Assembly: GCA_964457455.1 (NCBI GenBank)
Contig: CAYWJN010000001.1
Location: 5,648 to 69,647, forward strand
From: an uncultured Candidatus Cloacimonadota bacterium
GTDB taxonomy: Bacteria; Cloacimonadota; Cloacimonadia; Cloacimonadales; TCS61
Direction: 5' to 3'
DNA length: 64,000 nucleotides
Part shown: positions 6,423-31,106 of the stretch, in pieces
How positions within the stretch are numbered: the stretch's first letter is position 1
Layout: every line of letters starts with the position of its first letter
Position numbers and translations under genes: made by a program
The notes under the pieces: model-generated
Told to the model about the DNA's origin: nothing
The model's input: the letters and a program-made list of their open reading frames with translations, nothing else
Databases searched by the model: none

Positions 6423-8435
6423 ATGAAATTTTTTAAAGATCCACTAAATGCAAACGATGTATTTAAAGACATAGTTGTCAAGACGGCTGTTTTGGATTTA
6501 ACGAATGACCGCCCAGATCAATGGAGAGAAGAGATAAGAGAATACATCTCAAATAAATATCCATTTTTGACGGCAGGATTAAAGGAAGTTAAATATAATA
6601 AGATAGATGAGTCAACTGGGGATGCTATTGGATCAATAGTATGGATGGAAGGTAATACATCGATGACTATCCCAGTGATAATTGAAAACAACATCCTCAA
6701 AGATATTGACGCAGCGATATACCAGAATAAAGTTATTCCCATATCGGAGTCTTTTATATTATCTGAAGTGGAGAAGAATCAGGAAATGGGGCAAACTGAA
6801 GAGACTAATGATGTTTCTGATGAGATAGAATTTCTTACAGAAGGGGGATTATTTGATGTTAGTGACCAGACGGGCATAAAAGTAGCAGCCACAATATCCA
6901 CTGTTGCAAGGGTAAGAAATTTGTTAGATAGCAGGGGTGTAAAATTGCCAGAAAATATTGAGAATCTTATTAAGGAGGGGGTAGCAAAGGGTAAAAATGA
7001 TGAAGACAGAATATTAGTGATAAAGAGGAGAGAAATTCCAGAAAAACCATATCATTTTTCTGGAATTATGTTAAAACAAGCCTCTGATGGTAAATATAAA
7101 ATAGAAAGGTTTGAAATGTCTGCAGAAGATTTTAATAAAATTGCTGGATTTGTTGAAGGGGGGTGTGTATATGATTCTAATTCTGATTCTGATTGCCTTG
7201 ATAATAGAACAACCAAATATGTATCAATGATACTGGATAAACAGTTAAAGGATATGCCCAAAATCAAAAAGATAACGGAATCGGGGAATTATCAATATAT
7301 ATTATTTAATGGGATTGGAAAAAGAGGTGTTGTCGTAACCGACCCATTAAAAATATGGGAGACAGGAAAATCTAGAGCGTTGGCTGTTTCTGAAAATACC
7401 TCTGCCCTTCACGAAACGAATGACCCACGAGAATGGATTTATGGCGAGGTATATGGTGGGTCAGACGATTATGAAAATTTAAAAACCAAGTCGCAGGGCT
7501 ATTATTTCGGTGGAATGACACCTGTTGATCTACAAAATGTTCAAGGCAAGGATATAATATTTGAAGCCAGCAGGACAATAACCCTCCCATATAGAGTAGA
7601 AGAGGTAACAAAAACACGACTCGCAAAAGATGGACGCGAAATAGTTCTCTATTATTTAAAATCATATCATGATGGTAGTCATGCGACAGTATGGTTAAAT
7701 AGCGGTATTGATAAAGTGACTAAAGCGGACACTGAAAAAATGATTGCTCAAGGACTAGGGGCGATTGTTAGACCGGGCAGGGATATATATCTTTTGCCGG
7801 AATATTATCGCCCCATATTTCTTCCCGGGAAAAGAATCAAGGATTCAAAAATCAAATCTCAAGTGTCAGACATTATGAAAAATATCCAAACAGATTATCC
7901 TATCAAAACAGCTATTGAGATGGTTGACATGGATGAATACAGGGTGACGGTTCGCAATGGAAGTAGGAAGATTTTTGATGAAACTATGAAAAAAGAGGCT
8001 TCACTCCTGGTTGCCAATTACTTTACTGGGCAAAACGCTGACAGAATAGAAGACTATGATCCTAGTGATATTTATTTGTCAAAATATGCTGGAAATATTA
8101 AAGACATAGAACCAAAACACTATGTGGACTTGTCTGCTATGGATAAATATAGAGGGGATTTTATCAAAACAGCATCGATTCTTTGGCGAGAATGGCCAAT
8201 TGAAAAAGATGCCGAAATAGAGAATGTCATTAATGGACTGATTTCCGCAGAATATGCTGATAAAAAAAATATCGTAAATTCAGAAGAACTGTTGGAACTG
8301 CTGAGTAAAACGCTAAATAAAATAGGGAATGTCTTATTATTGTCCAGAATGTCAAAAACACATTTGTCTGAACCAATATTAACGAAGGCTTTTAAGGCAA
8401 TAACAGGGTTGATTTCTGATATAAAGGGCGAATAA
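6423..8435 (+). CDS. large structural or internal virion protein, unknown function
   Basis: 670-aa ORF with an AAGGAG SD. Contains NLIKEGV, which resembles the proposed processing motif. Confidence 0.7.
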   Translation: MKFFKDPLNANDVFKDIVVKTAVLDLTNDRPDQWREEIREYISNKYPFLTAGLKEVKYNKIDESTGDAIGSIVWMEGNTSMTIPVIIENNILKDIDAAIYQNKVIPISESFILSEVEKNQEMGQTEETNDVSDEIEFLTEGGLFDVSDQTGIKVAATISTVARVRNLLDSRGVKLPENIENLIKEGVAKGKNDEDRILVIKRREIPEKPYHFSGIMLKQASDGKYKIERFEMSAEDFNKIAGFVEGGCVYDSNSDSDCLDNRTTKYVSMILDKQLKDMPKIKKITESGNYQYILFNGIGKRGVVVTDPLKIWETGKSRALAVSENTSALHETNDPREWIYGEVYGGSDDYENLKTKSQGYYFGGMTPVDLQNVQGKDIIFEASRTITLPYRVEEVTKTRLAKDGREIVLYYLKSYHDGSHATVWLNSGIDKVTKADTEKMIAQGLGAIVRPGRDIYLLPEYYRPIFLPGKRIKDSKIKSQVSDIMKNIQTDYPIKTAIEMVDMDEYRVTVRNGSRKIFDETMKKEASLLVANYFTGQNADRIEDYDPSDIYLSKYAGNIKDIEPKHYVDLSAMDKYRGDFIKTASILWREWPIEKDAEIENVINGLISAEYADKKNIVNSEELLELLSKTLNKIGNVLLLSRMSKTHLSEPILTKAFKAITGLISDIKGE

Positions 8436-8439
8436 TCAA

Positions 8440-9444
8440 ATGAACTTATTAAAAGTAATTCCCCACTTAGGATTTATAAAGTTGTTGGCATTGTCCGGAT
8501 TTCCCATAAAATCGACTGATGGCATAAAAGGCATAAAAGAGAAGGTCGTGGAGGAGAGTTTTAATAGCATAGATGATAAATATTATGAATATTATATCAA
8601 TGAAATGATGGATGATAAAGCAACAGCAACCATGGTCAAGAAAAATAGGAAAATCCGGGAAGATAATTCCGTGGAAATAGATTCTCTTAAACACAAACCT
8701 ATTATATCTGATCCTAATATATTGGTAAAACACATAAGGGGTGGAGCAGATATAACCACAGCCATGCTAAGTCCATATAGTAGAGAGATAAAAGATGTGA
8801 ACGGATGTGCTAAAAGTGTTTATCATATCTTGAGGTGCAAAAAATTGCGACAATATATTGAAATAAGTATATTGCTGGAAAGATTTAGGGCAGATATTGT
8901 AAAAAATTGGAATCGACATACACAGGAGAATGATTTTAAATTGAGTGAAACAAATCTATACTTTTATCTTTTATATTTCTGGGATGTTGCGAGTGGTTCT
9001 CTTAGAAAAAGAGGGGCAGATATAATGGATATTTATGAATATTTGGTATATGATAAGCAGAATCCTTATTATAGTCCCCACATAGAATTAATGTTCAACC
9101 CTGTGGCGGATGCCCTTTCATATTTTGGGTTAATGAATGAATTTGATAGAATGCAAGACATTAGAGATCTGCGGGGTAAGTCTGGCAGATTGATAAAATC
9201 ACGGTTATCCAAAAAACACCAATCTATAGGTCGTGGTGTGACAGAAATTTTTTCTCATACCGATAGCCAGTTGCAAGAAGATGCATCTAAGGGAGATAGC
9301 GCAGAAAGTTTAAGAGCCGAAATAAGGAGAATGATAGAAAGACTTAAAATAATGCCTCAAGAGAGGAAAACCCTGTATCAATTAAAAGACGAGGTGGTTG
9401 ATACAGGCAATATAGAACAAGATAGCCCCGTCAAAAATAAATAA
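8440..9444 (+). CDS. hypothetical protein
   Basis: 334-aa ORF tightly packed after the previous gene. Confidence 0.65.
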   Translation: MNLLKVIPHLGFIKLLALSGFPIKSTDGIKGIKEKVVEESFNSIDDKYYEYYINEMMDDKATATMVKKNRKIREDNSVEIDSLKHKPIISDPNILVKHIRGGADITTAMLSPYSREIKDVNGCAKSVYHILRCKKLRQYIEISILLERFRADIVKNWNRHTQENDFKLSETNLYFYLLYFWDVASGSLRKRGADIMDIYEYLVYDKQNPYYSPHIELMFNPVADALSYFGLMNEFDRMQDIRDLRGKSGRLIKSRLSKKHQSIGRGVTEIFSHTDSQLQEDASKGDSAESLRAEIRRMIERLKIMPQERKTLYQLKDEVVDTGNIEQDSPVKNK

Positions 9445-9713: not shown

Positions 9714-10349
9714 ATGAAGAAATTAGTAATTATTTTGCTTGCGATGTTGTTGGTGACATCGCTATTTGCGAAGGACTTTAAGTCTGCAACTAATCGATTC
9801 TACGGGAAGGTGCAGACGGACAGTACCATGATCACTACTAAAAATGTGGGTACAAAATCTGATAGTGTAGCCTCCGTAGTAGAATATGGCGACGCAAAAT
9901 TCCATGTAACTGAAATTGCAATATCATCTGCCCACTTTGCCGATATACCTGGCGGAGCCGATTTGGCTTTGGGACAGTTACTGTATACTTTCCCCACGGG
10001 GGCAATAGTTGTCAAGGGCGCATATATGAATATTGCTTTGAATGAAAGTGATGGGAATATTACTGCAGACACCCCAGATGTAGGTATTGGAACTACGGTA
10101 GCATCGGGTGTTGTAAATGTGTTGGGCGGAACAGCCGCGTTTGAAAATATTTTAACCGGCCAGACCGCTACAGATTGTGATAGCACTTATACTACGAAAA
10201 CATTGGCATTAGCAGACCCCCTGGAGATTGAGACAGGTGGTGATAAAACAGTATACTTGAATGTCGCTGATGGATGGGCAGCTAGTGGTGAAGATGCATT
10301 GGAATATGTTGGAACAGTTGTGATAGAATGGGTATTACTTAAAGAATAG
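9714..10349 (+). CDS. protein with signal-peptide-like N-terminus
   Basis: MKKLVIILLAMLLVTSLFA-KD resembles a type I signal peptide. AAAGGAG SD upstream and a hairpin directly downstream. Confidence 0.65.
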   Translation: MKKLVIILLAMLLVTSLFAKDFKSATNRFYGKVQTDSTMITTKNVGTKSDSVASVVEYGDAKFHVTEIAISSAHFADIPGGADLALGQLLYTFPTGAIVVKGAYMNIALNESDGNITADTPDVGIGTTVASGVVNVLGGTAAFENILTGQTATDCDSTYTTKTLALADPLEIETGGDKTVYLNVADGWAASGEDALEYVGTVVIEWVLLKE

Positions 10350-10359
10350 CAAAGAAACA

Positions 10360-10604: not shown

Positions 10605-11672
10605 ATGAAATGCCCTTGTATCATAAAAACATCGGGAATTAGGAGAATAAGTATGCTTCCAACAATAATTAAGATATCTGCAATAGAGAAGTATTCGTCT
10701 CCCAAATGGATCAAGATGATAAGGTCAGGCAAATTAAGTGAGAAGGCATTAAAAATTCTTGCAAATGCTGGATATAAAGATAGGACAATAAAACATCTTG
10801 GAGTGGGAGGAACAAGAGTCTCTGACTTGGTATTTACTAGTAGGGTGGGTAAAGCTGTTAGAAAAATACCTAATATAGAGGGGGTGTCGAAATATTATAT
10901 TCATGAGCCATATAATAGCCAAGCAAAGGAACATTTTGTATGGAATAAAGTGCAAAAATATTTGTCAAAAAAGAAGATAAAGGTTCCTCGATTGATAAAA
11001 CAAGATGGCCCAATAGGATATTATGAGCATGTTAAAGGTAGGAGCGTTGCTAATAAAGCAAAAAAATTATTTAATAAACTAGACGAATATGGAAAGCAGG
11101 GTGATAGAGTTAGGAGAATTCGGGTAAAGAATGCTAAATTAAGGATGTTAAGGATTCTTAATAAATCACCTATAGATGCTAAAACCATGCGAAAAATAAA
11201 AAGAAAATATCCGAGAATATATGATATGACGAATAGAAATCTTGTTGATAGAACGCTAGTAGACTTTGATATTCTAGGACCCCAAACTTATACAATGGAT
11301 AGAGGACCATCCAAGCATTATCGTGATACTTATAAAGCGTTTGCTAATGGAATGCGTACGACTGAAAACTATAAGAAAACGTTTCCTGGATATTTCAGCA
11401 GAAACAAAAATAAAATAATACCCTCCGTTATATTAGGAGGGGCTTTGGTTGCCGCTGGAATTAGAGAAGCAAAAAATAAAGATAAAAATGGAGTGAATCA
11501 AATCAAAAAAAATGCTATGATAAAATTCTCCGGGATGTTATCAGATATTGCCAGTGCTCGCAAAGCAACTAATGCTAATCCGTCAGAAGCACAGATTAAG
11601 GCAGAAAACTATAAAAAAGTGCCCATAAAGGCGAGAAAATTTATTTCAGGAATTATCAGGAAGATAAGATAA
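10605..11672 (+). CDS. leader-tagged protein-kinase-like protein, paralog A
   Basis: Starts MKCPCIIKTS, then a second degenerate leader MLPTIIKISA. Kinase-like motifs are LGVGGTRVSDLV, GKAVRKIP, YDMTNRN and LVDFD. Ends at NPSEAQIKAENYKK, where paralog B continues. Confidence 0.6.
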   Translation: MKCPCIIKTSGIRRISMLPTIIKISAIEKYSSPKWIKMIRSGKLSEKALKILANAGYKDRTIKHLGVGGTRVSDLVFTSRVGKAVRKIPNIEGVSKYYIHEPYNSQAKEHFVWNKVQKYLSKKKIKVPRLIKQDGPIGYYEHVKGRSVANKAKKLFNKLDEYGKQGDRVRRIRVKNAKLRMLRILNKSPIDAKTMRKIKRKYPRIYDMTNRNLVDRTLVDFDILGPQTYTMDRGPSKHYRDTYKAFANGMRTTENYKKTFPGYFSRNKNKIIPSVILGGALVAAGIREAKNKDKNGVNQIKKNAMIKFSGMLSDIASARKATNANPSEAQIKAENYKKVPIKARKFISGIIRKIR

Positions 11673-11711: not shown

Positions 11712-11834
11712 ATGAAATGTCCTAAAATATTGAAAATTGCCGATGTTGAAGATAGAGGGTTATGGCATTGGCATCCAGATGGTGATCTAAACTGTTCAGG
11801 CACTGTTGTAATCGAATGGGTGTTTGTTAAATAG
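11712..11834 (+). CDS. 40-aa chimeric mini-ORF: leader plus a copy of the C-terminus of the 9714 gene
   Basis: Translation is MKCPKILKIADVEDRGLWHWHPDGDLNCSGTVVIEWVFVK. The tail GTVVIEWVFVK parallels GTVVIEWVLLKE at 10313-10349. Confidence 0.4.
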   Translation: MKCPKILKIADVEDRGLWHWHPDGDLNCSGTVVIEWVFVK

Positions 11835-11836
11835 AA

Positions 11837-11899
11837 TACTGAGGAACCCTTCCCCTTCAGTAGGTGGGCGGTGGTATCAATCTACCGCCTGTTGATTTA
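11837..11899 (+). terminator. two tandem hairpins, terminator-like
   Basis: First hairpin is TACTGAGG / CCTTCAGTA (11837-11862, one bulge). Second is GGCGGTGG / CTACCGCC (11867-11889), followed by TGTTGATTT. Confidence 0.5.
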
Positions 11900-11922: not shown

Positions 11923-12807
11923 ATGGGAGCATTTAAGACAATAGCTGGAACTACTGCCACCTGCGGCACATTGGGTGGAATGCTCGGTGGGGCAAGTTTA
12001 TGGCAAGGACACCGAAACTACAATAAGTATGTGCGGGGTGGGAGAAAAAACAGATTATCTTTTGGGCAATACATAAAGACGAAATCCGGTAAGGATCTTA
12101 AAGATGCCGCAATAGGGACAGCTATTGGGGGAGCTCTTGTGGGGATGGCAATAGGACCATCGGTGTATCGGCATAAAAGAAGAATGAGAGGGCTTAATGA
12201 AGCAGCAGAAAACATAAGAAGAGGGCTTAATGGAGCAGCAGAAAACATAAGAGGAAGGATGAACCGGGCAATGTGGGAAGATTTAAATAAAAAATATTAT
12301 GAATACTTTAAAAACTTAGGTGGGTTCGCGGTAAAGAGCGGAAATTTAGATAAAGCAATTAAAACGCTAAACATTAATAAATCGTCAGTAAAGACTAAGG
12401 CTCAGGTAAAAAAGATTTTTAGAGCAGCAGCAATGAAAAGCCACCCTGATAAAGGTGGTTCGGAGGATATTATGAAAGAAGTGGTGGGAGCATGGACATC
12501 CATTAAAAACTCAGGGTGGTTCAGTAAACTTGCATATGAGAGAGCACCTTATATACCGAAAACAGCGGTGTCGGGACGACTCGTCACGAATGCGGCGGAT
12601 GTTTCAGGAAAAGCATTTAATGCACTTATTAGGGGTCCGCTCACGAGAAGATTTCGCATGATGAGGAGCCCGAAGACAAGGAAGTATGTATTTAAGTCTC
12701 CAAGAAAATTAGATGAGTTACGTATGAAATACCTAAGAAGGAAATACAGGTTCCAACTCTATAAAAGTAACCCCGAAGCATCTGAATATTTTAAAAAACG
12801 CCACTAA
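11923..12807 (+). CDS. J-domain (DnaJ-like) protein with glycine-rich N-terminus and basic C-terminus
   Basis: KKIFRAAAMKSHPDKGGSEDIMKEV, with HPD at 12442-12450. N-terminal segments are GTLGGMLGGASLW and AIGTAIGGALVGMAIG. Confidence 0.7.
   Translation: MGAFKTIAGTTATCGTLGGMLGGASLWQGHRNYNKYVRGGRKNRLSFGQYIKTKSGKDLKDAAIGTAIGGALVGMAIGPSVYRHKRRMRGLNEAAENIRRGLNGAAENIRGRMNRAMWEDLNKKYYEYFKNLGGFAVKSGNLDKAIKTLNINKSSVKTKAQVKKIFRAAAMKSHPDKGGSEDIMKEVVGAWTSIKNSGWFSKLAYERAPYIPKTAVSGRLVTNAADVSGKAFNALIRGPLTRRFRMMRSPKTRKYVFKSPRKLDELRMKYLRRKYRFQLYKSNPEASEYFKKRH
12187..12252 (+). repeat. 33-nt in-frame tandem duplication (2 copies, 1 mismatch)
   Basis: AGAGGGCTTAATGAAGCAGCAGAAAACATAAGA occurs twice, encoding RGLNEAAENIR and RGLNGAAENIR. 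Confidence 0.9.
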
Positions 12808-12819: not shown

Positions 12820-14667
12820 ATGAATTGTCCTGTAATACTGAAGAGAGCTTCTCCAAGATGGGTTAAGATGGTGAGGTCTGGGAAATTAGGAAGAGAGTCG
12901 CTTAAAAGACTGGCGGAAGCTGGGTATAAAGACAGGACGATAAAGCCATTAGGTAGAGGAGCTTTCAGGATCGCCGACCTCGTATTCACAGAAGGTATTG
13001 GAAAAGCTGTTAGAAAAATACCTTTAATAGACAGAAAATCTGCAAGCGATATTATAGGAATATATAAAGCTCAGGCAATGGAGCATAAGGTATGGAATAA
13101 AGCGAGGAAGTTAATGCACAAAAAGGGTATTCCTGTAGCGAAAATGGTAAAGAGAAATAAAGGGATTGGATATTATGAATACATTAAGGGGAGAAAAATT
13201 TCTGATAAAGCGGCAATAATAAAAAAAAATATGGTCCCTAATGAGTATCCAAGAGAGGGGACAGTAGCAGAAAAAATTAGATGGCAAAAAAGAATAATTT
13301 CTATAAACAAGGCAAGAGAAAAAGTTCATAAAATAATTAATGCAAATATAATAAACAAGTCGGACTATAAGAATATTAAAAAAAGGTTTCCTCATCTTAG
13401 AGATACTACCGCTCAAAACACAATAGGAAACACTTTAATAGACTTTGATATTACTAACTATAAGGCATTCCCTACAAACTTGGACATGAAACGTAACATT
13501 AAAAAAGATTCATACAGAGCAATGAGGGAGGCGTTAAATGACAGAATGCCCAATAATATTAAAATAGCAACAATGACCGGAGATATAAATAGGGCTCGAA
13601 AAGATACCAACATTAACCCATCAGATGCCCAAATAAAAGCCGAGAACTACAAAAAAGGGTCATTCAAGTGGAATGGACTGACTATTAAATTGGAGAACCC
13701 AAAGGGATCAACGAGATCCGGAACTGACCCAGATGGTAAATCGTGGTCAATAAAGATGAAATATGATTATGGATACATCTCTAATGCACAGGATGGGAAA
13801 GATGGGGACAAAATTGATGTGTTCATAGGAAGTCATCCAGAAAGTCAGATAGTGTATGTAATTGATCAAGTAGACAAGAACGGTAAATTCGATGAACACA
13901 AGTGTATCCTCGGGGCACTCACTGAAGATGAGGCTAGAAAAACATATCTCGCTAATTATGAGAAGGGATGGAAATGTGGACCGATCACGGCGATGACCGT
14001 AGAGCAATTCAAGGAATGGACTATGAAGGGTAGAACCGGAAGTCCTCTAAATAAACAAAAACTTTTTAAAGTGGGAAAAACAATGAATTGCCCCAGCATT
14101 TTACAAAAAAAGTCTTCCCTAAGGTCTATACTTAAATTAAGACCTTTACTTCGAGAAATAAAGGCGCACAAGATTCCTATAGAGAGGCATTTCATCCCAC
14201 TTAAAAAGATCAATCCCACTCTTAAGAGAATGCTCAATATAGAATATGGGGGAGTCAACTCAGATATTGGGGTAAGAGATTATATTAGATTGCTGCGTGG
14301 CGGGCAATTTCTCAAAGGTAGAGGAAATGATTTATCTATATCTATTCCTAAAGTGAAAAATGTTGCTGTCAGGAAGATCGTCTCTATGCTTCCAAGAAAA
14401 AATGAGCCGGCAGCAGTGTTGTCTCACGAACTGGGGCATGCTGTGAAGAGCAAAAAAGGATTATTGGATATTCTTAAGAAACAAACATATAACCAGAAAT
14501 ATTGGAAGAAGCCTACTGCTATGAACGAGTATTTATCAGAAGCGGAAGCAAGTGCTTTTGGATTGAAGACATTAAATAAAATGAAAGATAAGATTCCATT
14601 AAATATGCCAAAGATAAAGAAAATACTATATAAAAAGTTAAAAATTTATGGGGAGGATTTGTTGTGA
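12820..14667 (+). CDS. leader-tagged multidomain protein: kinase-like + conserved phage/plasmid domain + internal leader + HExxH metallopeptidase-like module
   Basis: Starts MNCPVILKRA. Kinase-like motifs are LGRGAFRIADLV, GKAVRKIP, HLRDTTAQN and LIDFD. The middle domain reads AENYKKGSFKWNGLTIKLENPKGSTRSG...YGYI...DGDKIDVFIG. A second leader MNCPSILQKK lies at 14083. HELGH is at 14425-14439. Confidence 0.65.
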   Translation: MNCPVILKRASPRWVKMVRSGKLGRESLKRLAEAGYKDRTIKPLGRGAFRIADLVFTEGIGKAVRKIPLIDRKSASDIIGIYKAQAMEHKVWNKARKLMHKKGIPVAKMVKRNKGIGYYEYIKGRKISDKAAIIKKNMVPNEYPREGTVAEKIRWQKRIISINKAREKVHKIINANIINKSDYKNIKKRFPHLRDTTAQNTIGNTLIDFDITNYKAFPTNLDMKRNIKKDSYRAMREALNDRMPNNIKIATMTGDINRARKDTNINPSDAQIKAENYKKGSFKWNGLTIKLENPKGSTRSGTDPDGKSWSIKMKYDYGYISNAQDGKDGDKIDVFIGSHPESQIVYVIDQVDKNGKFDEHKCILGALTEDEARKTYLANYEKGWKCGPITAMTVEQFKEWTMKGRTGSPLNKQKLFKVGKTMNCPSILQKKSSLRSILKLRPLLREIKAHKIPIERHFIPLKKINPTLKRMLNIEYGGVNSDIGVRDYIRLLRGGQFLKGRGNDLSISIPKVKNVAVRKIVSMLPRKNEPAAVLSHELGHAVKSKKGLLDILKKQTYNQKYWKKPTAMNEYLSEAEASAFGLKTLNKMKDKIPLNMPKIKKILYKKLKIYGEDLL

Positions 14668-14957
14668 GATGTCCAGGGATAATTAAAGAAGCCTTAACTT
14701 CAACATTGTTAGGGAGAGCGTCTACCAAAGCAATGACTAAAGCAATATTCTCTCATAATTTTATTAACGACCTTTCTAAATATAGAAGATACTACCCTGT
14801 CAGATCAATAAAACTACAAGTCAAGGCAATCCCTTATCAGGTTAACTACATGAGACAGGCAAAGAAATTTGAAAAGGCTAGGCAGATAAAGATGGTTAAG
14901 AAATTAAAAAGAGATGCAAGCGATTTGATATCTATAATAAAGAGGAGAATGAAATGA
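14664..14957 (+). CDS. leader-tagged small basic protein
   Basis: GTG start overlaps the previous stop (GTGA), with GGGGAGGA SD upstream. Starts MRCPGIIKEA. Confidence 0.6.
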   Translation: MRCPGIIKEALTSTLLGRASTKAMTKAIFSHNFINDLSKYRRYYPVRSIKLQVKAIPYQVNYMRQAKKFEKARQIKMVKKLKRDASDLISIIKRRMK

Positions 14958-15205
14958 AATGTCCAGAGATAATTAAGGAAGCCTATGTACCGGGATTAAG
15001 GACGGGTATTGGTATGTTGGGTGGTGGTATAGGAGCATCTATGCTAAATAGCTCATCCCAAAATAAAAGGATTAAAAAAGGTAAACAAAAAAAATACAAT
15101 CCTTTGTCTACAATAGGTGCATTTATGGGAGGAAGTTTGTTAGGTGCAGGAGCTGGCGGTTATGCAGATTATAAGAGAATGGGGAAATGGATTAAACAAC
15201 CGTAA
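14954..15205 (+). CDS. leader-tagged glycine-zipper mini-protein
   Basis: Starts MKCPEIIKEA. Contains GIGMLGGGIGASML and IGAFMGGSLLGAGAGGY. Confidence 0.6.
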   Translation: MKCPEIIKEAYVPGLRTGIGMLGGGIGASMLNSSSQNKRIKKGKQKKYNPLSTIGAFMGGSLLGAGAGGYADYKRMGKWIKQP

Positions 15206-21246: not shown

Positions 21247-21963
21247 ATGAGCAAAGTATTCGCGGGTATGAAACCTATAAAAATAAAAGGATATGCTGGG
21301 AATCTGACAACAGATGTAAATCAACTTGTTTGGCCACATAATATGGAATATATTTATGGTTCTGTATCAGAAACATTATATTTGTCCAGCTCTGATAACG
21401 GAGATGATCAGGATTATAAAGTGACAGGGGTAGATGCTAATTATGTTTATCAAGAGGTAGAGGTTACATCTTCGGGGCAAACCGGGGTAAAAATTGGAGA
21501 AGATAATTCTTGGAGAAGGGTGTTTAGTATAGAGAATATAGGAGACACCAATAATGCTGGCGACATATATATCGGTACCGAATCTGCTCCGACAGGCGGA
21601 ATACCTAATGATAACAACATTAGAGGTATGATAGAAACCGGAAAAAATAAGAGTGAGATGGCTCTCTATACAGTGCCCAATAAGAAAAGGATCTTCATTA
21701 AAAAGATTATTCTGTCAGAAGCGGGTGCAGATGATGGGAGTTCGCTTATGTCTTTGAATGTAAGACCTTTTGGGAAAGTATTTAAACGGGAATTATCTGT
21801 GTCCCTCCTGAATGGAGTGGCAGAAATAGATTTAGAAGAACCAATAATAGTTGAGAGTAAATCAGACATTGAAATACAAGTAGTCAGCGGTGCGTCTAAT
21901 CCGGGTAAAATAACAGTATTAGTTGAAGCTGGAATAAATCCATTATTCTATGCAGGAGAATAA
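21247..21963 (+). CDS. hypothetical structural protein
   Basis: 238-aa beta-rich ORF with an AAGGAG SD. Confidence 0.6.
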   Translation: MSKVFAGMKPIKIKGYAGNLTTDVNQLVWPHNMEYIYGSVSETLYLSSSDNGDDQDYKVTGVDANYVYQEVEVTSSGQTGVKIGEDNSWRRVFSIENIGDTNNAGDIYIGTESAPTGGIPNDNNIRGMIETGKNKSEMALYTVPNKKRIFIKKIILSEAGADDGSSLMSLNVRPFGKVFKRELSVSLLNGVAEIDLEEPIIVESKSDIEIQVVSGASNPGKITVLVEAGINPLFYAGE

Positions 21964-22846
21964 CGTGCCCAGTGTCAGTCAGAACCAACAAAAATTAATG
22001 GGACTTGTCTATGCAGCCAAAAAGGGCGAAATACCAGTCTCTGCATTACATGGTCCGGCTAGGCAGATATACGAGAAAATGCCCAAAGAAAAAATCAGGG
22101 AATTTGCTAAAACTAAGAGAAAGGGGCTTCCAAAAAAGGCTTCACTACAAAGTGAGGTTATGAGGCAAATGGCCATTAGAATAGGAGGAGGTAGCGCAGT
22201 AGGGGGTGGGCTATCATATGCTGGTACTCTTAAAAACCAATGGGGAAGGTATAAAAAAAAGAATCCATCAGCGACATTTAAACAATTTTATTCTAATAGA
22301 ACACGACGAAATAAAAATGAACTGAAAAAATCTGTGGGTGTGGGTATACGATTAGGGATGTTGGCAGGATCTTTTATCCCGTACAATCACGCAAAATTGC
22401 GGGGCGCATCATATGATGGTTTCAGGCGTGCATATCAACAATACTCAGGGTCGCCGAACATTCCAAAGGCTACCATAAAAAAGAATTTAAGTACTTTCGG
22501 ATTAAAGATGAAAGGAGTTAACTCAAAAAGTCAGGTAAAACAAGCTTATTGGGCAACGATGAGGAAAGTGCATCCCGACAAAGGAGGCAATGAGGAAATT
22601 GCTAAAACAATCAATAGAGCATTTGATGATGTGTCAAAAACGGATTGGTTTAAGAAATTAGCGTATCCCAATATATTGAAGATGGCGCGGGGCAAATCTA
22701 TGCATTTACTTATAGAAAAGAAGGCTTTATGTCCATGGGTATTAAAGGAAGCAACCAAAAGGTGGATACAATCAGCAAATAAATCCATTAAAAGTCGAGG
22801 TACGGAAGGTGTGTGTTCTGGAGCAAACTTTGGTGGACCTACTTGA
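21950..22846 (+). CDS. J-domain protein paralog with leader-like motif near the C-terminus
   Basis: KQAYWATMRKVHPDKGGNEEIAKTI, with HPD at 22571-22579. LCPWVLKEATKRW lies at 22727 onward. An alternative GTG start at 21965 follows GGAG. Confidence 0.7.
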   Translation: MQENNVPSVSQNQQKLMGLVYAAKKGEIPVSALHGPARQIYEKMPKEKIREFAKTKRKGLPKKASLQSEVMRQMAIRIGGGSAVGGGLSYAGTLKNQWGRYKKKNPSATFKQFYSNRTRRNKNELKKSVGVGIRLGMLAGSFIPYNHAKLRGASYDGFRRAYQQYSGSPNIPKATIKKNLSTFGLKMKGVNSKSQVKQAYWATMRKVHPDKGGNEEIAKTINRAFDDVSKTDWFKKLAYPNILKMARGKSMHLLIEKKALCPWVLKEATKRWIQSANKSIKSRGTEGVCSGANFGGPT

Positions 22847-22917: not shown

Positions 22918-23616
22918 ATGGATGTTAAGATAATCGTGCTTATTATAGTAGTGCTAACTGGCAGCATTTATCACTTTGCCTATCGAAATGGTGTAAACGA
23001 TACAATCGTTAGGCAAGAGGAAGACCTTGTGTTTATGGATAGCAAGGTGGATTCCTTGACGGAGAGTATAAGTGCGGTTACTCATCAGGCGAATAATTGG
23101 AAATCGATAGCAGATTCGCTATTTACTAATCCCAAGATTATCAAGGATACAATATCAATTATTGTCACAGAAGATGGAGAAACTATTTATGATACTCTCA
23201 TGGTGGCTAATGCTGCTTCCCACACATTAGATTATAGTGGCGATAATGCAATAAAAGTGCGAAAACTCTTTACAGCCGAAGGGGATACTCTGCAATTTGA
23301 TATTCATGAGTGGATAGATATTGATGTAAATCTAGATAAAGATGGAGTAATGTATATCTTTGATAAATTGAGATATCAGATAAAAAATGTGAGGCTCAAT
23401 TGGGAAAGAAAATATATTAAAACCGTTGATAAAGGACAGATATTCTTCGTAGGGGAGACCCAATATGATTATAATCCAGAAGTTAATAATAATAAACAGA
23501 GATTAGATGGTTTTGTAGGCATAGATATCATCTTTGATGAAAGATATGGAATTGGATTAAAGGGGAATACAACAACGGTTGGACTGATGTTTAAATATAA
23601 ACTAATAGGATGGTAA
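22918..23616 (+). CDS. membrane-anchored protein (N-terminal TM)
   Basis: Hydrophobic N-terminus MDVKIIVLIIVVLTGSIY. AAAGGAG SD upstream. Confidence 0.6.
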   Translation: MDVKIIVLIIVVLTGSIYHFAYRNGVNDTIVRQEEDLVFMDSKVDSLTESISAVTHQANNWKSIADSLFTNPKIIKDTISIIVTEDGETIYDTLMVANAASHTLDYSGDNAIKVRKLFTAEGDTLQFDIHEWIDIDVNLDKDGVMYIFDKLRYQIKNVRLNWERKYIKTVDKGQIFFVGETQYDYNPEVNNNKQRLDGFVGIDIIFDERYGIGLKGNTTTVGLMFKYKLIGW

Positions 23617-24110
23617 ATATGATAAATTATGATAAGGGTCTATTGTATAGTAAAGCATTAAAGGCCGGACAATCTGTTGTGATGAAAACGCCAACAATAA
23701 CTAATTCCCGGGCAAGATATGCACCAGCAATAACTAAGAGAAAAACCGATAATGGGATTAAGTTGGCATGCCCAATAGTACTGAAGGAAGCGGGAATAGT
23801 TGCCGCATTAAAAGCATTTAAACCCATCGCTAAACATATATGGAAAAATCCATATACAAAAGCAGGTATTGTTGGTGGATCTGTCGGTGGAATATCATCG
23901 GGCATAAGCGGTGGAAATGTTGTCAAAGGAACTATAGGTGGTGCTGCAATCGGAGTTGGAGGAAGGTTTGGCTACAAGAAGTTAAAAGCAATAAAACCAA
24001 AAGGTATAAAGATAAAACATAATATAATTAAGAATAAAAAATATCCTGCACACATAGTGTTAGGTAAACAACCCTTAGTTGGTAAGCCCTACGTTGTGTC
24101 TGGAGTTTAG
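23610..24110 (+). CDS. glycine-zipper protein with internal leader motif
   Basis: LACPIVLKEA at 23763-23792. TTG 23763 after GGGA could be an alternative start. Contains GIVGGSVGGISSGISGGNVVKGTIGGAAIGVGG. Confidence 0.55.
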   Translation: MVNMINYDKGLLYSKALKAGQSVVMKTPTITNSRARYAPAITKRKTDNGIKLACPIVLKEAGIVAALKAFKPIAKHIWKNPYTKAGIVGGSVGGISSGISGGNVVKGTIGGAAIGVGGRFGYKKLKAIKPKGIKIKHNIIKNKKYPAHIVLGKQPLVGKPYVVSGV

Positions 24111-24124
24111 AAAGGAGAAATAAG

Positions 24125-24394
24125 ATGAAATGTCCACAAATAGTTAAAATGGCCGTTCTCGTAGGTCCTGCCATCGATCTGTCGTTATTTGGAACACCTT
24201 CTTTGATAGGTCATGGAGAAGGTAAGAAAAAGGGATTTAGGGAAGGAGCTATCAGCAGAAAAGAAAATCCGGAACGACTGAAATTTAAAAATTACGCTGG
24301 GCTACTAACGATACCTGGTTCAATAGGTTATCATCTTGGATATATGTCAGGTTGGAGACGAGCACAAACATTAAAAAAAGATAAATCTAGTTAA
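24125..24394 (+). CDS. leader-tagged small protein
   Basis: Starts MKCPQIVKMA, with an AAAGGAG SD. Confidence 0.6.
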   Translation: MKCPQIVKMAVLVGPAIDLSLFGTPSLIGHGEGKKKGFREGAISRKENPERLKFKNYAGLLTIPGSIGYHLGYMSGWRRAQTLKKDKSS

Positions 24395-24436
24395 GTTTTA
24401 AGATGATTAGGCATATAAAACGAGAGGAAAAATAAG

Positions 24437-24568
24437 ACGAAATGTCCTGCATCTGTAAAAATGGCAGCAACTAAAACCGTCTTACAGCCACATCAGGAAA
24501 GGACTGTTAGAAAATCAATGAATAACAATGTTCTTATCCAACACGGTTTAGGATCAGTCAAAAAATAA
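24437..24568 (+). pseudogene. decayed leader-family copy (ACG in place of ATG)
   Basis: GAGAGGAAAAATAAG ACG AAA TGT CCT keeps the SD, spacing and KCP codons but has no canonical start. The frame reads TKCPASVKMAATKTVLQPHQERTV...GLGSVKK then stop. Confidence 0.45.
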
Positions 24569-24648
24569 TTTTGGAGAATATATGATTAAATATAAGGAAT
24601 ATACGATCCAAGACGATATACTGGATTGAAAAAATAAAGGAGAATAAA

Positions 24649-25128
24649 ATGAAATGTCCAAGAATAGTAAAAGAAGCCATTACATTGATGAGAGTATCCA
24701 ACAAAGGTGAGTATAGAGGGTATACCCCAACAAAAGCAAAAGAAATAACAAGCGATAAATATCTGGAATTATCTGATGAATTGAGGAACAAAAGGATAAA
24801 TAGATATAGGAATCTGCCTAAAGTATACAAAAAAAATAGGCAGGTCGCTGGAGGGATATTAGGAGGAGGACTGGGTGGCACAATATCTAGTAGTCTTATG
24901 TCCGGGTCAAAAATAAAAGGAAAATACAAATTACCTATTATATTGGGATCGTCGCTATTAAGTGGAATAGGATTAGGTGCAGCATTTACTCCAAATAAAA
25001 GGAGAATGGAGAGAATGCGAGCATATGCTGATAAAAAAACTGATATAGAAAATTTCAGGAGACATTATCAAAGACCGGGGATAAAGAAAAATCCTAAAAA
25101 CTATAAATACTATATGAGAGATACATAG
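24649..25128 (+). CDS. leader-tagged glycine-zipper protein
   Basis: Starts MKCPRIVKEA. Contains GGILGGGLGGTISSSLMSGS and LLSGIGLGAAF. Confidence 0.65.
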   Translation: MKCPRIVKEAITLMRVSNKGEYRGYTPTKAKEITSDKYLELSDELRNKRINRYRNLPKVYKKNRQVAGGILGGGLGGTISSSLMSGSKIKGKYKLPIILGSSLLSGIGLGAAFTPNKRRMERMRAYADKKTDIENFRRHYQRPGIKKNPKNYKYYMRDT

Positions 25129-25140
25129 GAAATAGAAATA

Positions 25141-25236
25141 GTGAGATGTCCCATTGTAGTTAAAGAGGCGGTGATCAGCACTATATTACAACCTCTATTT
25201 GTTGCAAAGATCAAAAGAGAAGAAAGATATCATTGA
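25141..25236 (+). CDS. 31-aa leader-only mini-ORF
   Basis: GTG start after AGGAAA. Translation is MRCPIVVKEAVISTILQPLFVAKIKREERYH. Confidence 0.35.
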   Translation: MRCPIVVKEAVISTILQPLFVAKIKREERYH

Positions 25237-25280
25237 CCAATTATACGAAGTTATGGAAAGAGCAAATTAAAGGAGAAATA

Positions 25281-25661
25281 ATGAAACGTCCATTAATAAT
25301 TAAAGAAGCAATAGTCAAAGATATTGCAGACATCGAAGACGAAATATCAACTAATCCACAATATACCAAAAGTCAGGCAATAAAAGACTACAAGACTCAT
25401 GCTTTTGATAATATTGAGCAGGGACGATTGCCTGCTGTTCTATTAGGGGCTGGGATAGGGGCACTATCTTCGCTGATAGGACCAAAATCTTTAATGAAGA
25501 CTATGCGTCATGTAGGTGCAGGAGGACTATCTGGGGGGGCAGCAAAAGTTTTATCTGAAATTGATGATTTAAAAGCAAAAGCATTCCCCAGTGTATTACA
25601 GAGAGATGCTGAAAAGTATGTTAATTCATTAATAAAATATTATAGGGCGCCCCGAATATAA
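25281..25661 (+). CDS. leader-variant (RP for CP) glycine-zipper protein
   Basis: Track ORF is 25233-25661. ATG 25281 follows AAAGGAG. Starts MKRPLIIKEA and contains LLGAGIGALSSLIG and VGAGGLSGGAAKV. Confidence 0.6.
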   Translation: MKRPLIIKEAIVKDIADIEDEISTNPQYTKSQAIKDYKTHAFDNIEQGRLPAVLLGAGIGALSSLIGPKSLMKTMRHVGAGGLSGGAAKVLSEIDDLKAKAFPSVLQRDAEKYVNSLIKYYRAPRI

Positions 25662-25673: not shown

Positions 25674-27662
25674 ATGATCAAATATATTGACCTCCCATCT
25701 TACGATAAGAATGGGAACCCCACTGTCCAGCCGATTAATTTTTATGGCATGGAGAAAGTGGCTAATTACAATTACATGCCCAAAGATGCTCAGGAGTTTG
25801 TGGCGAACATAACGCCGGTAAAAAATAGGGTCTTCTTGCTGATCAGTGCGGTTGCCGATGAGTGTTGGGGAGCAAATAGTAATTCAGATTTCTTCCCAAC
25901 TATGAGTCTAAGTAATCCTACGGATGATTGGGGGTATAAAACTTACCTTAAGGCACATTATTTTCATCGCCATGAGAATAAAGACCCAGCCAAAGGGTTC
26001 GGTAGAGTGATTTTCTCCACATGGGATGAGATGATGGGCAGAGTGCTGGTAGTTGCAGAGGTGGATACCCTGAAGGATTTGGACACGAAGCAGATGCTGG
26101 ATAGTCACCAGCATATTCCGACATCGATGGGCATGAGGGTTCCTTATGATGTTTGTCGGGTATGCCATCCTAAATGGAAAGAATTCTACAAGATTCCGGA
26201 AAATGAAATGATCAAAATATCTATTTCCGGCGATATTGATGAGATAAAGGCGATTGGCAAAAAGTATGGCGTTGATTTGTCATATATTACTGAATTGAAT
26301 GACGAAGAATTCAAGGAAACTGATGATGGACAAAAGAAGAGTCTCGGAAGAGGTCCTGTTGGGATTCACTCAACATTGAACAAATATTGCGACCATATGA
26401 AGTACATGAGGGGTAGAATGGTGCCCTCAACCGGTATAGTTGTCTCTGTGGTCAATATGAGACCTAAGTTTTTCGATATAAGTAAGGTGGGAACGAATGC
26501 TGAAAAATCCAGTTATGTCCTGCAGAAGGTTGCTAGCAAAGATGACTCTGGCAGAATAACAGAAGAAGAATTAATTGAAATAGAAAAAGCCTCCGAGAAC
26601 AAGAGGGCAGAAGATAAGAAGGCAGATATTGAAAAAGAGGTAGAAGGCCAAGTATTAAGTGATGATCATATGGCGATTAACAATTATATCGGTGAAAAAA
26701 TAGTCCCGGAATTGAAAGCATCTGAAATGGATCTTCCGGTGGGAACAATAAGTGAGATTGCAAAATATCCCATTGATGATATTCTGACAACATTCTTGAG
26801 TGCGGGGGCATACCCTCGTCCACGGGAATTTCAGAGGATTATCTTAATTCAAATGGGGAAAAAAGATGATGCAGATGAATATGATAGACAGAAAATAGTT
26901 ATTCCGGATACAATAGAGGGAATTCCAACATCTGGGGAATGCTTACCAGGAATAACCTTCTCTCCAGATAAAATTAATAACAATATTTTTGATATCATAA
27001 AACCGTTTTTAATGCAAAGGTCATATTATAGACCATGCATGATCAAGAGAATCGTGATGGTAAAGAGGGCAAATGAAATTAATGCATATTTAGATCCGCC
27101 CAAAAATCATAAATCGCCCTTACCTGGAATATTAGGAACCATCGCTGCTACCTATATGTTGTCGAAAACAAAAGCAGGAAAACACCTTGTCCCGCTTGTT
27201 AAAAATATAAAAGGTAACCCAAAACTCTGGATAGCCGCCATTGTCGGCAGCGAGGTGGCTTCGCGTTTATTTAACTATTCGCGGGAAGAAATGGGTAATA
27301 ATATGGTTAAGACATCTGCTAAATATACGAATATAGCTACCTTGGTTGGGCTGCCCGTGGCATCTTATTTATATGCTGGGCATGTTTATAATAAAGCCAA
27401 ATCGGGAAGACATATCAGCGGTGTTGAAAAATTCGTGGCCAAAAATCCTGGAGGGGTTGGAATTGCTGCTGGGCTTACCGCTAATCCCCATACTCGAAAA
27501 GCAATAAAAGTAATACTTAAGGGAGTGGTAGGGAAGCATGCCGAACTTGATATGTTAATAAAAAATGGAATGGATTTTAATGGGATGGATATAACGCAAT
27601 ATCCTATAGAAGATAGAGATAGCATTATTGCATCGATGTGGAAAAATCTATATGATAAATAA
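25674..27662 (+). CDS. prohead serine protease (HK97/S78-like N-terminal domain) with long C-terminal extension
   Basis: The three blocks recalled for this family appear in order. The His block is YFHRHENKDPAKGFGRVIFSTWDEMMGRVLVVAEV. The Ser block is IPTSMGMRV. The late block is FFDISKVGTNAEKSSYV. Position is just upstream of scaffold-like and capsid genes. Confidence 0.55.
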   Translation: MIKYIDLPSYDKNGNPTVQPINFYGMEKVANYNYMPKDAQEFVANITPVKNRVFLLISAVADECWGANSNSDFFPTMSLSNPTDDWGYKTYLKAHYFHRHENKDPAKGFGRVIFSTWDEMMGRVLVVAEVDTLKDLDTKQMLDSHQHIPTSMGMRVPYDVCRVCHPKWKEFYKIPENEMIKISISGDIDEIKAIGKKYGVDLSYITELNDEEFKETDDGQKKSLGRGPVGIHSTLNKYCDHMKYMRGRMVPSTGIVVSVVNMRPKFFDISKVGTNAEKSSYVLQKVASKDDSGRITEEELIEIEKASENKRAEDKKADIEKEVEGQVLSDDHMAINNYIGEKIVPELKASEMDLPVGTISEIAKYPIDDILTTFLSAGAYPRPREFQRIILIQMGKKDDADEYDRQKIVIPDTIEGIPTSGECLPGITFSPDKINNNIFDIIKPFLMQRSYYRPCMIKRIVMVKRANEINAYLDPPKNHKSPLPGILGTIAATYMLSKTKAGKHLVPLVKNIKGNPKLWIAAIVGSEVASRLFNYSREEMGNNMVKTSAKYTNIATLVGLPVASYLYAGHVYNKAKSGRHISGVEKFVAKNPGGVGIAAGLTANPHTRKAIKVILKGVVGKHAELDMLIKNGMDFNGMDITQYPIEDRDSIIASMWKNLYDK

Positions 27663-28124: not shown

Positions 28125-28691
28125 ATGTTTGAATTTTTAAACAAATTAGCCGCAAATGAAGAAGAAACTGGGCTTACAAAAAGTGCTCAATATCTTATTG
28201 TAAAAAAAGCGCAAGATAAAACCATTGAATACCTTAAGGAATCCAAAGAGTTTGAAAATGCATTTCCAGAAGTTATCAAGATTGCCAACGACGAGTTGGA
28301 AAAGATGTCAGAAGAAGATAAAGTAAAGGCCCATAATCTTTATGCTTTTGGTGCTGGGTGTGCATATGGTGAAGCATTAACCAAAGAGGCTATGGCAGGA
28401 CCGATGGCTGACGAAATTTATGCCACAATGATTCAGGTATTGAATGATAAGGGACACGAAAAGTTGGCAGAAGAGGTTGACAAGGTTTTAAACGAGGAGA
28501 GTCCTGCTCTTACCGAGGCTGAAATAATTGCAGAAGTGGCTAGTGAGGCTGCTGCTGAAAATCTGGTCGAAGAAGCTGGTGGAGAAGAAGTGGTGGAAAA
28601 AAATCCTGAAATTGCTGCTGAAATTCTGGAAACATCTCAAGCTATAGGTGCAGAGGTAGCTCAAGAAGTGACAGAAAAAACTGGCGAATAA
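28125..28691 (+). CDS. acidic scaffold-like protein
   Basis: Highly acidic and helical, with a Glu/Ala-rich C-terminus. Position is between the protease and the capsid gene. Confidence 0.5.
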   Translation: MFEFLNKLAANEEETGLTKSAQYLIVKKAQDKTIEYLKESKEFENAFPEVIKIANDELEKMSEEDKVKAHNLYAFGAGCAYGEALTKEAMAGPMADEIYATMIQVLNDKGHEKLAEEVDKVLNEESPALTEAEIIAEVASEAAAENLVEEAGGEEVVEKNPEIAAEILETSQAIGAEVAQEVTEKTGE

Positions 28692-30098: not shown

Positions 30099-31106
30099 AT
30101 GAATATAGATAATACACAATTAATAAAAGAGGCGAACGATATTCTGCAAGACCTTGCGATGAATGGTCGTGAGGCAAAAGATAATTTTATAACGAAATTC
30201 GGAACTTCTCTGGAAAATTACGTCAAGAGATATGTAAGGGAAGAGGCTTTCTCTGAGAAACTCTTGGTCAATAAAACCATGTCACCGAAGGATCCGGGTA
30301 TTCAAGAGACCGAAGATGCTGATGTATTTTACGTACTTGACAAGAAGGAAATCGGAGCAACCGCTGCCGAGGTCTCTATAAGAGGTGATACCCAACCCAT
30401 TTTCGTAGACACAAAAAAATATAAGATATGGATCGGCAAAATTGAAACAGAACGGCACAAAAAACCATGGCTGGAACTTGAAACATCTTCTGCTTCCGAT
30501 CTTGTTGATATGGTAACGAAAAATGGTGCCGAAGCAATAAGGCGAACTCAAGATTTAGGCTTTATCAAGAATGTTGCTTCCATATTGACAATTACGGGTA
30601 ATCATGTTGGTGGAGACACCACAGTATATACTGATACTATCGATTGGACAAATAGTGGTAGAAAAAAAGATCTTACGAACCTAATGTCCTATATCACACG
30701 ACAAGGACTTGTGCCTGCTAAATGGTTGATGTCTCAGACTGCATGGAATGATATGCTTGCATTTGATGCTGGTGAAGTTGGTAATCTTGCTGGAGAGACT
30801 TTTAAAAACGGTATAGCGCAGAAAGTCCTGCTGGATATTCCTGTCATTACAACCATAAAGGCAGACCTTAAAAATGATGATGAAACTATTTACTATTTTG
30901 ATAAAGAAGGTGATAGCGGCGAGCTCTATACAGATATCTATTTGTTTGTAGATCCATCTTATTTGGGTAAAAACATCAAAATTGGAAGCGATAAATCTGA
31001 TTCCAAATGGGAATGGGATGATTTCATCTGGGGTGCATGGAGATATACCGGTCACGGATTTGGCGACACTCGTGGTATCTGTAGGATGAGAATCCGAATT
31101 AAATAA
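30099..31106 (+). CDS. putative major capsid protein
   Basis: 335-aa ORF with a strong AAAGGAG SD, following the protease and scaffold-like genes and preceding a strong terminator region. The N-terminus carries LIKEA at 30120-30134. Confidence 0.55.
   Translation: MNIDNTQLIKEANDILQDLAMNGREAKDNFITKFGTSLENYVKRYVREEAFSEKLLVNKTMSPKDPGIQETEDADVFYVLDKKEIGATAAEVSIRGDTQPIFVDTKKYKIWIGKIETERHKKPWLELETSSASDLVDMVTKNGAEAIRRTQDLGFIKNVASILTITGNHVGGDTTVYTDTIDWTNSGRKKDLTNLMSYITRQGLVPAKWLMSQTAWNDMLAFDAGEVGNLAGETFKNGIAQKVLLDIPVITTIKADLKNDDETIYYFDKEGDSGELYTDIYLFVDPSYLGKNIKIGSDKSDSKWEWDDFIWGAWRYTGHGFGDTRGICRMRIRIK

Follow-up and report, generated by a model that had tools for sequence, protein, structure and literature searches.

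The 64,000-nucleotide stretch of contig CAYWJN010000001.1 analyzed here, which we call the window, contains a tandem array of short reading frames that share a leader peptide and lie directly upstream of the gene for a prohead protease homologue. The window derives from an uncultured phage, with a GC content of about 37% and all of its credible genes on the + strand. A megablast search of 50,697 deposited phage genomes returned no near match. The same phage is present on metagenomic contigs of 66.7, 78.4 and 134.6 kb, and the array is identical in these strain variants, which show at most one substitution in 6.5 kb, located outside it. Along the window, a GpA-type terminase (15220; genes are named here by their first position) is followed by a 922–amino acid open reading frame (ORF) at 18469, a block of small genes, a 662–amino acid ORF (25674), acidic scaffold-like proteins, an HK97-type capsid gene (30099) and the tail genes. 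The ORF at 18469 sits in the portal position, an assignment made from synteny alone, and has no database match. Counts of predicted promoters and terminators over 21–31.5 kb were no greater than in shuffled sequence. The array and the protease gene comprise the following features.

23610 to 24110, + strand: 166–amino acid basic protein, isoelectric point (pI) 10.5, with the internal leader ACPIVLKEA at residues 53–61 (23766–23792), behind a conserved N-terminal pro-region of 52 residues, and a glycine zipper spanning residues 85–118 (23862–23963)
24125 to 24394, + strand: 89–amino acid basic protein with the N-terminal leader MKCPQIVKMA and a strong ribosome-binding site (RBS; GGAG)
24437 to 24568, + strand: probable relic copy, in the frame TKCPASVKMA, with ACG where its paralogues have ATG
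24649 to 25128, + strand: 159–amino acid basic ORFan, pI 10.4, with the leader MKCPRIVKEA, a strong RBS, a glycine zipper at residues 66–87 (24844–24909) and a second hydrophobic run at residues 95–113 (24931–24987)
25141 to 25236, + strand: 31-codon frame with a GTG start and a poor RBS, RCPIVVKEAVISTIL, with the leader RCPIVVKEA
25281 to 25661, + strand: 126–amino acid protein with a strong RBS, the leader MKRPLIIKEA and Gly/Ala-rich hydrophobic runs at residues 50–68 (25428–25484) and 86–98 (25536–25574)
25674 to 27662, + strand: 662–amino acid prohead protease homologue, with the protease domain at about residues 31–290 and a C-terminal region that is helical and partly Gly-rich

The motif [KR]-C-P-x-[IV]-[IVL]-K-x-A occurs in six consecutive + strand frames over 23610–25661. 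It is N-terminal in five of them and internal in the 23610 ORF. An earlier note, made from the sequence of this region, had described six leader-bearing frames here and quoted three glycine-zipper runs. All six frames are present on the + strand with their leaders, four looking like genuine genes and two like relics, and the runs are as written in the 23610, 24649 and 25281 ORFs. We gathered relatives in two ways, as homologues of the 662–amino acid ORF and with a degenerate DNA pattern for the leader; their contigs are numbered L001 to L021, and homologous proteins have P numbers (for example, P0141).

The start of the 23610 ORF overlaps the stop of the preceding gene (ATGGTAA). Its orthologue in L001 (47% identity, E = 1e-31) includes both the pro-region and the motif, as MACPCILKQA. 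An orthologue of the 24125 ORF in L011 (38% identity, E = 2e-16) has the leader MKTPEMIKEA. For the 24649 ORF, a homologue search of 5.8 billion proteins returned self-matches only, and its AlphaFold model was uninformative (mean predicted local distance difference test score, pLDDT, of 51). The 25281 ORF is a conserved gene immediately 5′ of the protease, with counterparts in L001, L008 and L009 and in P0141, which was the single true relative recovered by exhaustive phmmer. The invariant columns in the alignment of these five proteins (A5) are M1, P4 and five zipper glycines.

The frames at 24437 and 25141 are most likely decayed copies. Stop codons lie just 5′ of the 24437 frame, its RBS is weakened, and its 5′ 44 nucleotides are 77% identical to the start region of the 24125 ORF. 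The 25141 frame is probably a truncated paralogue of the 14664 ORF (RCPGIIKEALTSTLL), the first 15 residues being alike. Both frames are missing from the public gene calls of identical contigs. Also inside the array, at 24582–24629, is a 15-codon ORF, MIKYKEYTIQDDILD, that resembles the MIKYI with which the protease invariably starts; it may be the relic of a duplication that took in the 5′ end of the protease gene, or a chance likeness. Upstream, within the head module, 22918–23616 encodes a 232–amino acid protein with an N-terminal transmembrane (TM) segment and a weak match to Rz-like spanins (phrog_739, 8.6e-6), conserved in L001, L007, L008 and L009.

The name "prohead protease" given to 25674–27662 in the earlier note is borne out at the level of fold. 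An AlphaFold model built from 35 homologues has a confident N-terminal domain (about residues 31–290, pLDDT mostly >85). With this model, Foldseek found 82 matches in BFVD at E ≤ 1e-3, many of them annotated as COG3740, prohead protease or prohead serine protease. All 35 homologues retain H100 and S151, which are presumably catalytic and lie about 50 residues apart, a spacing typical of the prohead-protease fold. Searches of Pfam and PHROGs, and phmmer and profile searches of the PDB, were all without a match. We list at least 181 homologues, all unannotated, on contigs of up to about 200 kb. Among annotated phages, tblastn found only gp222 of Salmonella phage Arash and proteins of three Vibrio phages (25–27% identity), and a single-protein scan of IMG/VR found none.

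Several further features of this protein family were observed. Cys161, Cys164, Cys239 and His241 are near-invariant in the protease domain (alignment A1), which suggests a zinc site, atypical for prohead proteases. The linker carries a conserved K[KD]AEIxK element at about residues 319–327. Inteins or homing endonucleases (PF14890, PF14528 and PF05203) interrupt the homologues P0014, P0020, P0024, P0026 and P0100 (L009, 10001–13390).

The leader is not restricted to the array. We scanned all six frames of the window with a position matrix that had been trained solely on the leaders of related phages. There were 14 in-frame + strand matches at ≥13.8 bits, compared with a best minus-strand score of 11.5 bits, and one out-of-frame + strand match (14.5 bits). 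All 14 lie between 6 and 29 kb, and the same scan found no leader match in the tail genes (31–62 kb). In 10 of the 14, the motif proline is residue 4 of the ORF (10605, 11712, 12820, 14664, 14954, 24125, 24437, 24649, 25141 and 25281). The four internal copies at ≥13.8 bits are in the 6135 ORF, in the 21950 ORF (AYPNILKMA), in the 23610 ORF and in the 28125 ORF (AFPEVIKIA). The motif is enriched in the window and predominantly N-terminal. Leader codons vary synonymously (CCA/CCT/CCC; GCC/GCA/GCG), which argues that the constraint acts on the peptide. A scan of GTDB genomes for the leader gave a single chance match, in a Puia metagenome-assembled genome, which was not at an ORF start. Outside the array, the leader-bearing features of the window are as follows.

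6135 to 6413, + strand: 92–amino acid basic protein with internal KCPSILKKS; its L010 orthologue has LACPAIIKEA
10605 to 11672, + strand: 355–amino acid basic protein with the leader MKCPCIIKTS
11712 to 11834, + strand: 40–amino acid ORF with the leader MKCPKILKIA and a fragment like the C-terminus of the 9714–10349 ORF (GTVVIEWV)
12820 to 14667, + strand: 615–amino acid basic protein with the leader MNCPVILKRA, an InPase domain and a zincin (M91-like) domain
14664 to 14957, + strand: 97–amino acid basic protein with a GTG start and the leader RCPGIIKEA
14954 to 15205, + strand: 83–amino acid basic glycine-zipper protein whose leader, MKCPEIIKEA, fits the clade consensus best (31.6 bits)
21950 to 22846, + strand: 298–amino acid protein with an N-terminal DUF3008, a J-domain, Gly-rich runs and two internal motifs near the C-terminus
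28125 to 28691, + strand: 188–amino acid acidic scaffold-like protein, pI 4.3, with internal AFPEVIKIA (residues 46–54) and a second motif, IVKKA (24–29)

The two internal motifs of the 21950 protein are AYPNILKMA at 22661 and a weaker LCPWVLKEA at 22727 (10.9 bits). The 11712 ORF looks like a recombination chimera; a GC-rich hairpin (~11862–11891) lies 3′ of it. The 10605 and 12820 proteins share a domain right after the leader (SPxWxKMxRSGKL...AGYKDRTIKxLG).

Among the relatives, the leader is found on unrelated protein bodies in L001–L003, L006, L008–L012 and L016–L021, with the clade consensus MK[C/T]PEIIKEA. The form MK[CT]PEIIKEA is itself frequent in L010–L012 and L016–L021. L001 has the leaders MQCPIIIKEA, MRSPEIIKIA and MACPCILKQA. 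Directly upstream of the protease, L003 has KCPACIKEA, and glycine-zipper proteins of L008 and L009 bear MKTPIIITMA and MRVPIIMFKEA. In L006, a tandem of four genes, each beginning MELIKCP, immediately precedes the protease gene. Two of these (7639–8346 and 8358–9065) appear to be an exact tandem duplicate of a 235–amino acid leader-tagged gene, which is evidence of a recent expansion of the array. The leader also marks module junctions and may then be internal. L011 encodes a fusion of DUF3008, leader and body, the body being a stand-alone leader-tagged gene in L012, and one ORF of L012 has two leaders with a fragment of a DUF3008 tail between them. It was also observed in relatives that the motif comes directly after DUF3008.

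The core of the leader, two hydrophobic residues followed by K-x-A (h-h-K-x-A), recurs at invariant positions of head proteins that otherwise diverge fast. All 35 aligned members of the protease family, the most distant at about 25% identity, keep K28 and A30 (MEKVA, FIKTA, FEKTA and HIKMA), which lie within an N-terminal segment that is disordered, modeled with low confidence and otherwise variable. In the scaffold-like family of the 28125 ORF, K27/A29 and K52/A54 are invariant in eight orthologues of 23–51% identity. The capsid protein carries the core as well.

30099 to 31106, + strand: HK97-type major capsid protein, with an N-terminus, MNIDNTQLIKEAN, that bears the core motif

K-x-A lies within the first 13 residues of the capsid protein in eight of eight clade members (as K-x-S in L007); examples of the capsid core are LIKEA in the window and MIKEA in L004. 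The sharing of this core by the leader, the protease N-terminus, the scaffold-like protein and the capsid N-terminus is the ground on which we read h-h-K-x-A as a recognition or cleavage motif. On the simplest reading, it would be the motif of the protease itself, placed by the leader at the N-terminus of cargo proteins.

What the tagged proteins have consistently in common, apart from the leader, is basic charge. Their median pI is 10.2, compared with 6.5 for the remaining 60 ORFs (Mann-Whitney p = 1.7e-4). Glycine zippers, which the earlier note described in the longer frames of the array, do not unify the set. The runs are real and the zipper glycines are conserved in A5, but a strict glycine-run criterion picks out only 4 of the 12 tagged proteins (against 4 of 60 others, p = 0.02). 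The strict G...G...G pattern occurs in the 23610, 24649, 14954, 11923 and 21950 ORFs, and the 25281 ORF has only Gly/Ala/Ser-type runs. The five glycines invariant in the A5 family indicate that the zipper is under selection, and in metagenomic leader proteins a zipper often follows immediately after the leader. The further glycine-run sites named in the earlier note are clear at 14954, 27711, 21950 and 11923 but weaker at 28713 and 6135. Gly-rich runs are also conserved at the C-termini of two head-module proteins that lack the tag, 27711 and 28713, and of their orthologues; zipper-like runs in untagged proteins of this module fit association with the core as well as insertion into membranes. 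The zippers could serve either self-association in the core or membrane insertion, the latter suggested in the earlier note for the time of ejection. Hydropathy of the runs is borderline for TM segments (Kyte-Doolittle means over 19 residues of 1.1–1.75). No array member matched the Pfam glycine-zipper models (Gly-zipper_Omp/OmpA/YMGG and 2TM) at E ≤ 10, and the 11923 protein reached a sub-cutoff E of 0.13 with Gly-zipper_YMGG. Among the papers searched, none connects glycine zippers to phage ejection proteins.

The tagged 12820 protein is a candidate cargo of the polyvalent-protein type. Its InPase domain is clear (PF18823, E = 1e-50), and its M91-like zincin match (E = 9.4e-5) is below the Pfam cutoff. 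InPase is described as confined to phage-type polyvalent proteins that are predicted to be packaged and injected (PMC5512222). The PHROGs matched by the InPase of 12820 bear the names virion structural protein, minor head protein and DarB-like, and there are also matches to giant polyvalent proteins. In more distant phages, homologues of the 662–amino acid protease carry InPase as a direct fusion (for example, P0053 and P0068). Such fusions, together with a packaged-type InPase, provide independent support for the proposal that the leader replaces a physical link to the prohead core.

We therefore propose that the leader M-K-[C/T]-P-x-[IV]-[IVL]-K-x-A is a propeptide for capsid targeting and maturation, comparable to the capsid-targeting sequence (CTS) of phage T4 and removed by the protease. 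We put the probability of this reading at about 0.6. Late in infection, the tagged proteins would be made: small basic ones, of which some have glycine zippers, and larger enzymes, the InPase/zincin protein among them. The leader would dock them to the prohead core, on the protease, the scaffold or both, while the shell assembles. The 662–amino acid protease would then cut at or beside the h-h-K-x-A core, and its trimming of the scaffold-like protein, of the capsid protein N-terminus and of its own N-terminus would rely on that motif too. The mature basic proteins would remain with the DNA and exit with it at infection. The gene set turns over quickly, with the leader acting as a portable module junction through which new bodies can be tagged. 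ORFans, relics, chimeras and tandem duplicates all indicate such turnover, which points to an arms-race arsenal delivered at infection. The suggestion in the earlier note that these are small packaged proteins thus stands as the best-supported reading, on the shared core, the InPase/zincin cargo and the basic charge, with packaging itself a predicted step.

Several points weigh on the other side. Both packaging and cleavage of the tagged proteins are steps that we infer from sequence, and two of the six array members look like pseudogenes. The residue before the alanine varies (E, M, T, R, Q, I, V and K), so that a strict T4-like cut specific for Glu is not supported, and the conserved K-C-P part of the leader is left unexplained. 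K-x-A is short, and its occurrence alone means little; the argument depends on its invariance in alignments. A near-invariant VLxKVA at protease residues 282–287 falls in a modeled beta strand, where its role may be structural and not that of a cleavage site. The protease has no Pfam, PHROG or PDB sequence match that ties it to gp21 (S77) or HK97 gp4 (S78). Foldseek with the full-length model against the PDB matched T4 gp21 (5jbl) weakly and not significantly (E = 0.56); this was the sole phage protease among the weak matches. Finally, the leader is absent from Salmonella phage Arash and the Vibrio phages, cultured relatives whose protease is homologous. The virion proteome of phage Arash comprises 116 proteins, including metabolic enzymes, and counts as weak evidence. 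Arash gp224 was considered as a homologue of the 28713 ORF and rejected (BLASTP E = 39).

Wherever sequence can speak to it, the proposed system appears to work like the T4 CTS, yet it is not a member of the T4 family, and the phage is not T4-like. The order of putative portal, small core proteins, protease, scaffold and capsid is the same here as that of T4 genes 20-67-68-21-22-23. In this order, the small proteins resemble gp67 and gp68 in being encoded between portal and protease. Glycine zippers, present in several members here, are not known as a feature of the T4 internal proteins. In T4, the core contains the small proteins gp67 and gp68, which are processed by the prohead protease (PMC9958956). 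Unlike the genes here, this pair has no shared leader and is degraded to peptides, whereas a single trimming is proposed for our proteins, and there is no sequence similarity between the two groups.

The T4 internal proteins are non-essential and highly basic, have a CTS of about 10 residues (MKTYQEFIAE) that is removed by a single gp21 cut, and are present at about 1000 copies in the head (PMC8442874). Residues 4 and 7 of the CTS serve targeting, and residues 8 and 10 serve processing (PMC9026906). As with the CTS of IPI, IPII, IPIII and Alt, a putative N-terminal propeptide of about 10 residues is found here on unrelated, mostly highly basic proteins, and its end resembles presumed processing sites of other head proteins. 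In both systems, the cargo set differs among related phages, and enzymes are tagged besides small proteins. The two propeptides show a loose likeness of pattern (MKTYQEFIAE|A in T4 and MK[CT]PEIIKE|A here) that is too short for a significance test. Unlike T4, the phage has a GpA-type terminase and an HK97-type capsid protein without a Gp23 match, its protease has no S77/U9 sequence match, and the position ahead of the presumed cut is not always Glu. The leader has a conserved Cys/Thr-Pro that is absent from T4, and there are many more tagged genes than in T4, with 10 N-terminal copies and four internal sites (in four proteins) in 64 kb.

In phiKZ and SPN3US, many head proteins have N-terminal propeptides that are cut by a self-cleaving prohead protease, and ejection proteins form families of paralogues (PMC10052503). 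These are jumbo phages with an inner body or bolus. Their cleavage motif is A/S/G-x-E, compared with h-h-K-x-A here, and their propeptides are mostly 111–254 residues long, with no common short leader. No similarity to the phiKZ inner body emerged in the PHROG or Pfam matches of the window proteins, and the inner-body-like packing proposed in the earlier note gains no specific support. The 12820 protein resembles polyvalent proteins in joining InPase to a zincin peptidase, domains typical of that class (PMC5512222), but its effector is carried on a short leader, rather than fused to MuF, portal or other head domains. The zipper proteins resemble glycine-zipper membrane and pore proteins in having (G/A/S)xxxGxxxG runs within short hydrophobic segments and, in A5, conserved glycines. 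They differ from them in that they match no Pfam model, their segments sit in highly basic proteins, and their TM hydropathy is borderline.

Among the alternatives, one keeps the protease but gives the leader a smaller part. The motif would be only a cleavage site for the maturation protease, and the proteins would enter by zipper association with core proteins, or by charge, and be trimmed afterwards. It accounts for the leader core being the same h-h-K-x-A as in the scaffold-like, capsid and protease sequences, for the internal position of the motif in some proteins, and for the conserved Gly-rich C-terminal runs of untagged 27711, 28713 and their orthologues. We nevertheless regard it as unlikely. 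The leader has an additional conserved [KR]-C/T-P, which is mostly missing from the scaffold and capsid sites, and lies at the extreme N-terminus in 10 of 14 cases. Moreover, some tagged proteins have no zipper (10605, 12820, 14664 and the zinc-ribbon proteins in L011 and L012), and one 10-residue T4 CTS holds determinants of both targeting and processing (PMC9026906).

A more ambitious form of the proposal, which we consider rather doubtful, is plug-and-play capsid loading in a myovirus-like clade, with a hypervariable family of small, basic glycine-zipper proteins as the commonest cargo; these pore-forming "pilot" peptides would oligomerize in the host membrane after ejection. The pilot protein H of phiX174 is an example of a packaged glycine-zipper protein. 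The phage, predicted to have a contractile tail from a candidate tail-sheath-like ORF, might use such peptides to open or seal a conduit or to depolarize the cell, blunting its defense, and cassettes might be exchanged through the leader.

Alternatively, the tagged proteins may be proteins of the host membrane and not cargo at all (holin-, spanin- or exclusion-like, or anchors for prohead assembly), with a leader that serves membrane delivery or regulation. The Gly/Ala-rich runs of 24649 and 25281 reach 19-residue Kyte-Doolittle means of 1.6–1.75, the neighboring 22918 protein has its TM segment and spanin match, and the zipper glycines of A5 are invariant. We judge this improbable, because the leader has no signal-peptide h-region and no lipobox and is also found on the soluble InPase/zincin protein, on zinc-ribbon proteins and on an acidic scaffold-like protein. 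Furthermore, no Pfam glycine-zipper model matched at E ≤ 10 except for 11923 (E = 0.13), and the genes are located in the head module, not beside lysis genes. Two other kinds of leader were considered and rejected: a lipoprotein or signal-peptide leader, for want of the same h-region and lipobox, and a leader of the ribosomal L27/Prp type, known from phage 80alpha, which differs in sequence.

Conservation could also act on the nucleic acid, if an RBS and initiation region, or a recombination hotspot, had been copied in front of unrelated ORFs and the peptide had no role. The repeat does take in the RBS (44-nucleotide family D1, 70–77% identity), and the chimeric or relic copies (11712, 24437, 25141 and L012 3326) suggest recombination at the leader. 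This is very unlikely, however, as the peptide stays constant through synonymous codon changes, internal copies without an RBS are retained (23766, 22727 and 28260), and the motif is kept where the proteases are only 40% identical and the upstream sequence is different (MELIKCP in L006). We dismiss an array of precursors of ribosomally synthesized and post-translationally modified peptides (RiPPs), in which the leader would guide a modifying or cleaving enzyme to secreted bioactive peptides: tandem leader-bearing small ORFs do adjoin a protease, but the bodies have 80–615 residues and some are folded enzymes, none of the neighboring genes matched a RiPP maturase, transporter or cyclase family, and the protease has a capsid-maturation fold and lies between the portal-position ORF (placed by synteny, with no database match) and the capsid gene.

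If the targeting and maturation reading is right, the leader would represent a second, independent case of the T4 CTS principle, in a lineage without sequence kinship to T4. A large unannotated protease family would gain h-h-K-x-A as its candidate recognition motif, and a simple sequence rule would allow virion cargo and ejected proteins to be predicted in metagenomic phages. Foreign proteins could also be packed into such capsids with the leader as a ready-made tag. The T4 system has no counterpart to the conserved glycine zippers found on many of the cargo proteins, which raise a testable question about the action of small hydrophobic-basic proteins in the host envelope or within a capsid.

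Other observations concern neighboring genes and relatives. The proteins of 11923–12807 and 21950–22846 are both basic and Gly-rich, with weak J-domain matches (HPDKGG); J-domains encoded in or beside a head module are unusual. In L003, collagen-like GPTG repeats occur in a tail- or fiber-like protein (1–1765) and in the C-terminus of a decoration-like protein (9767–10351).

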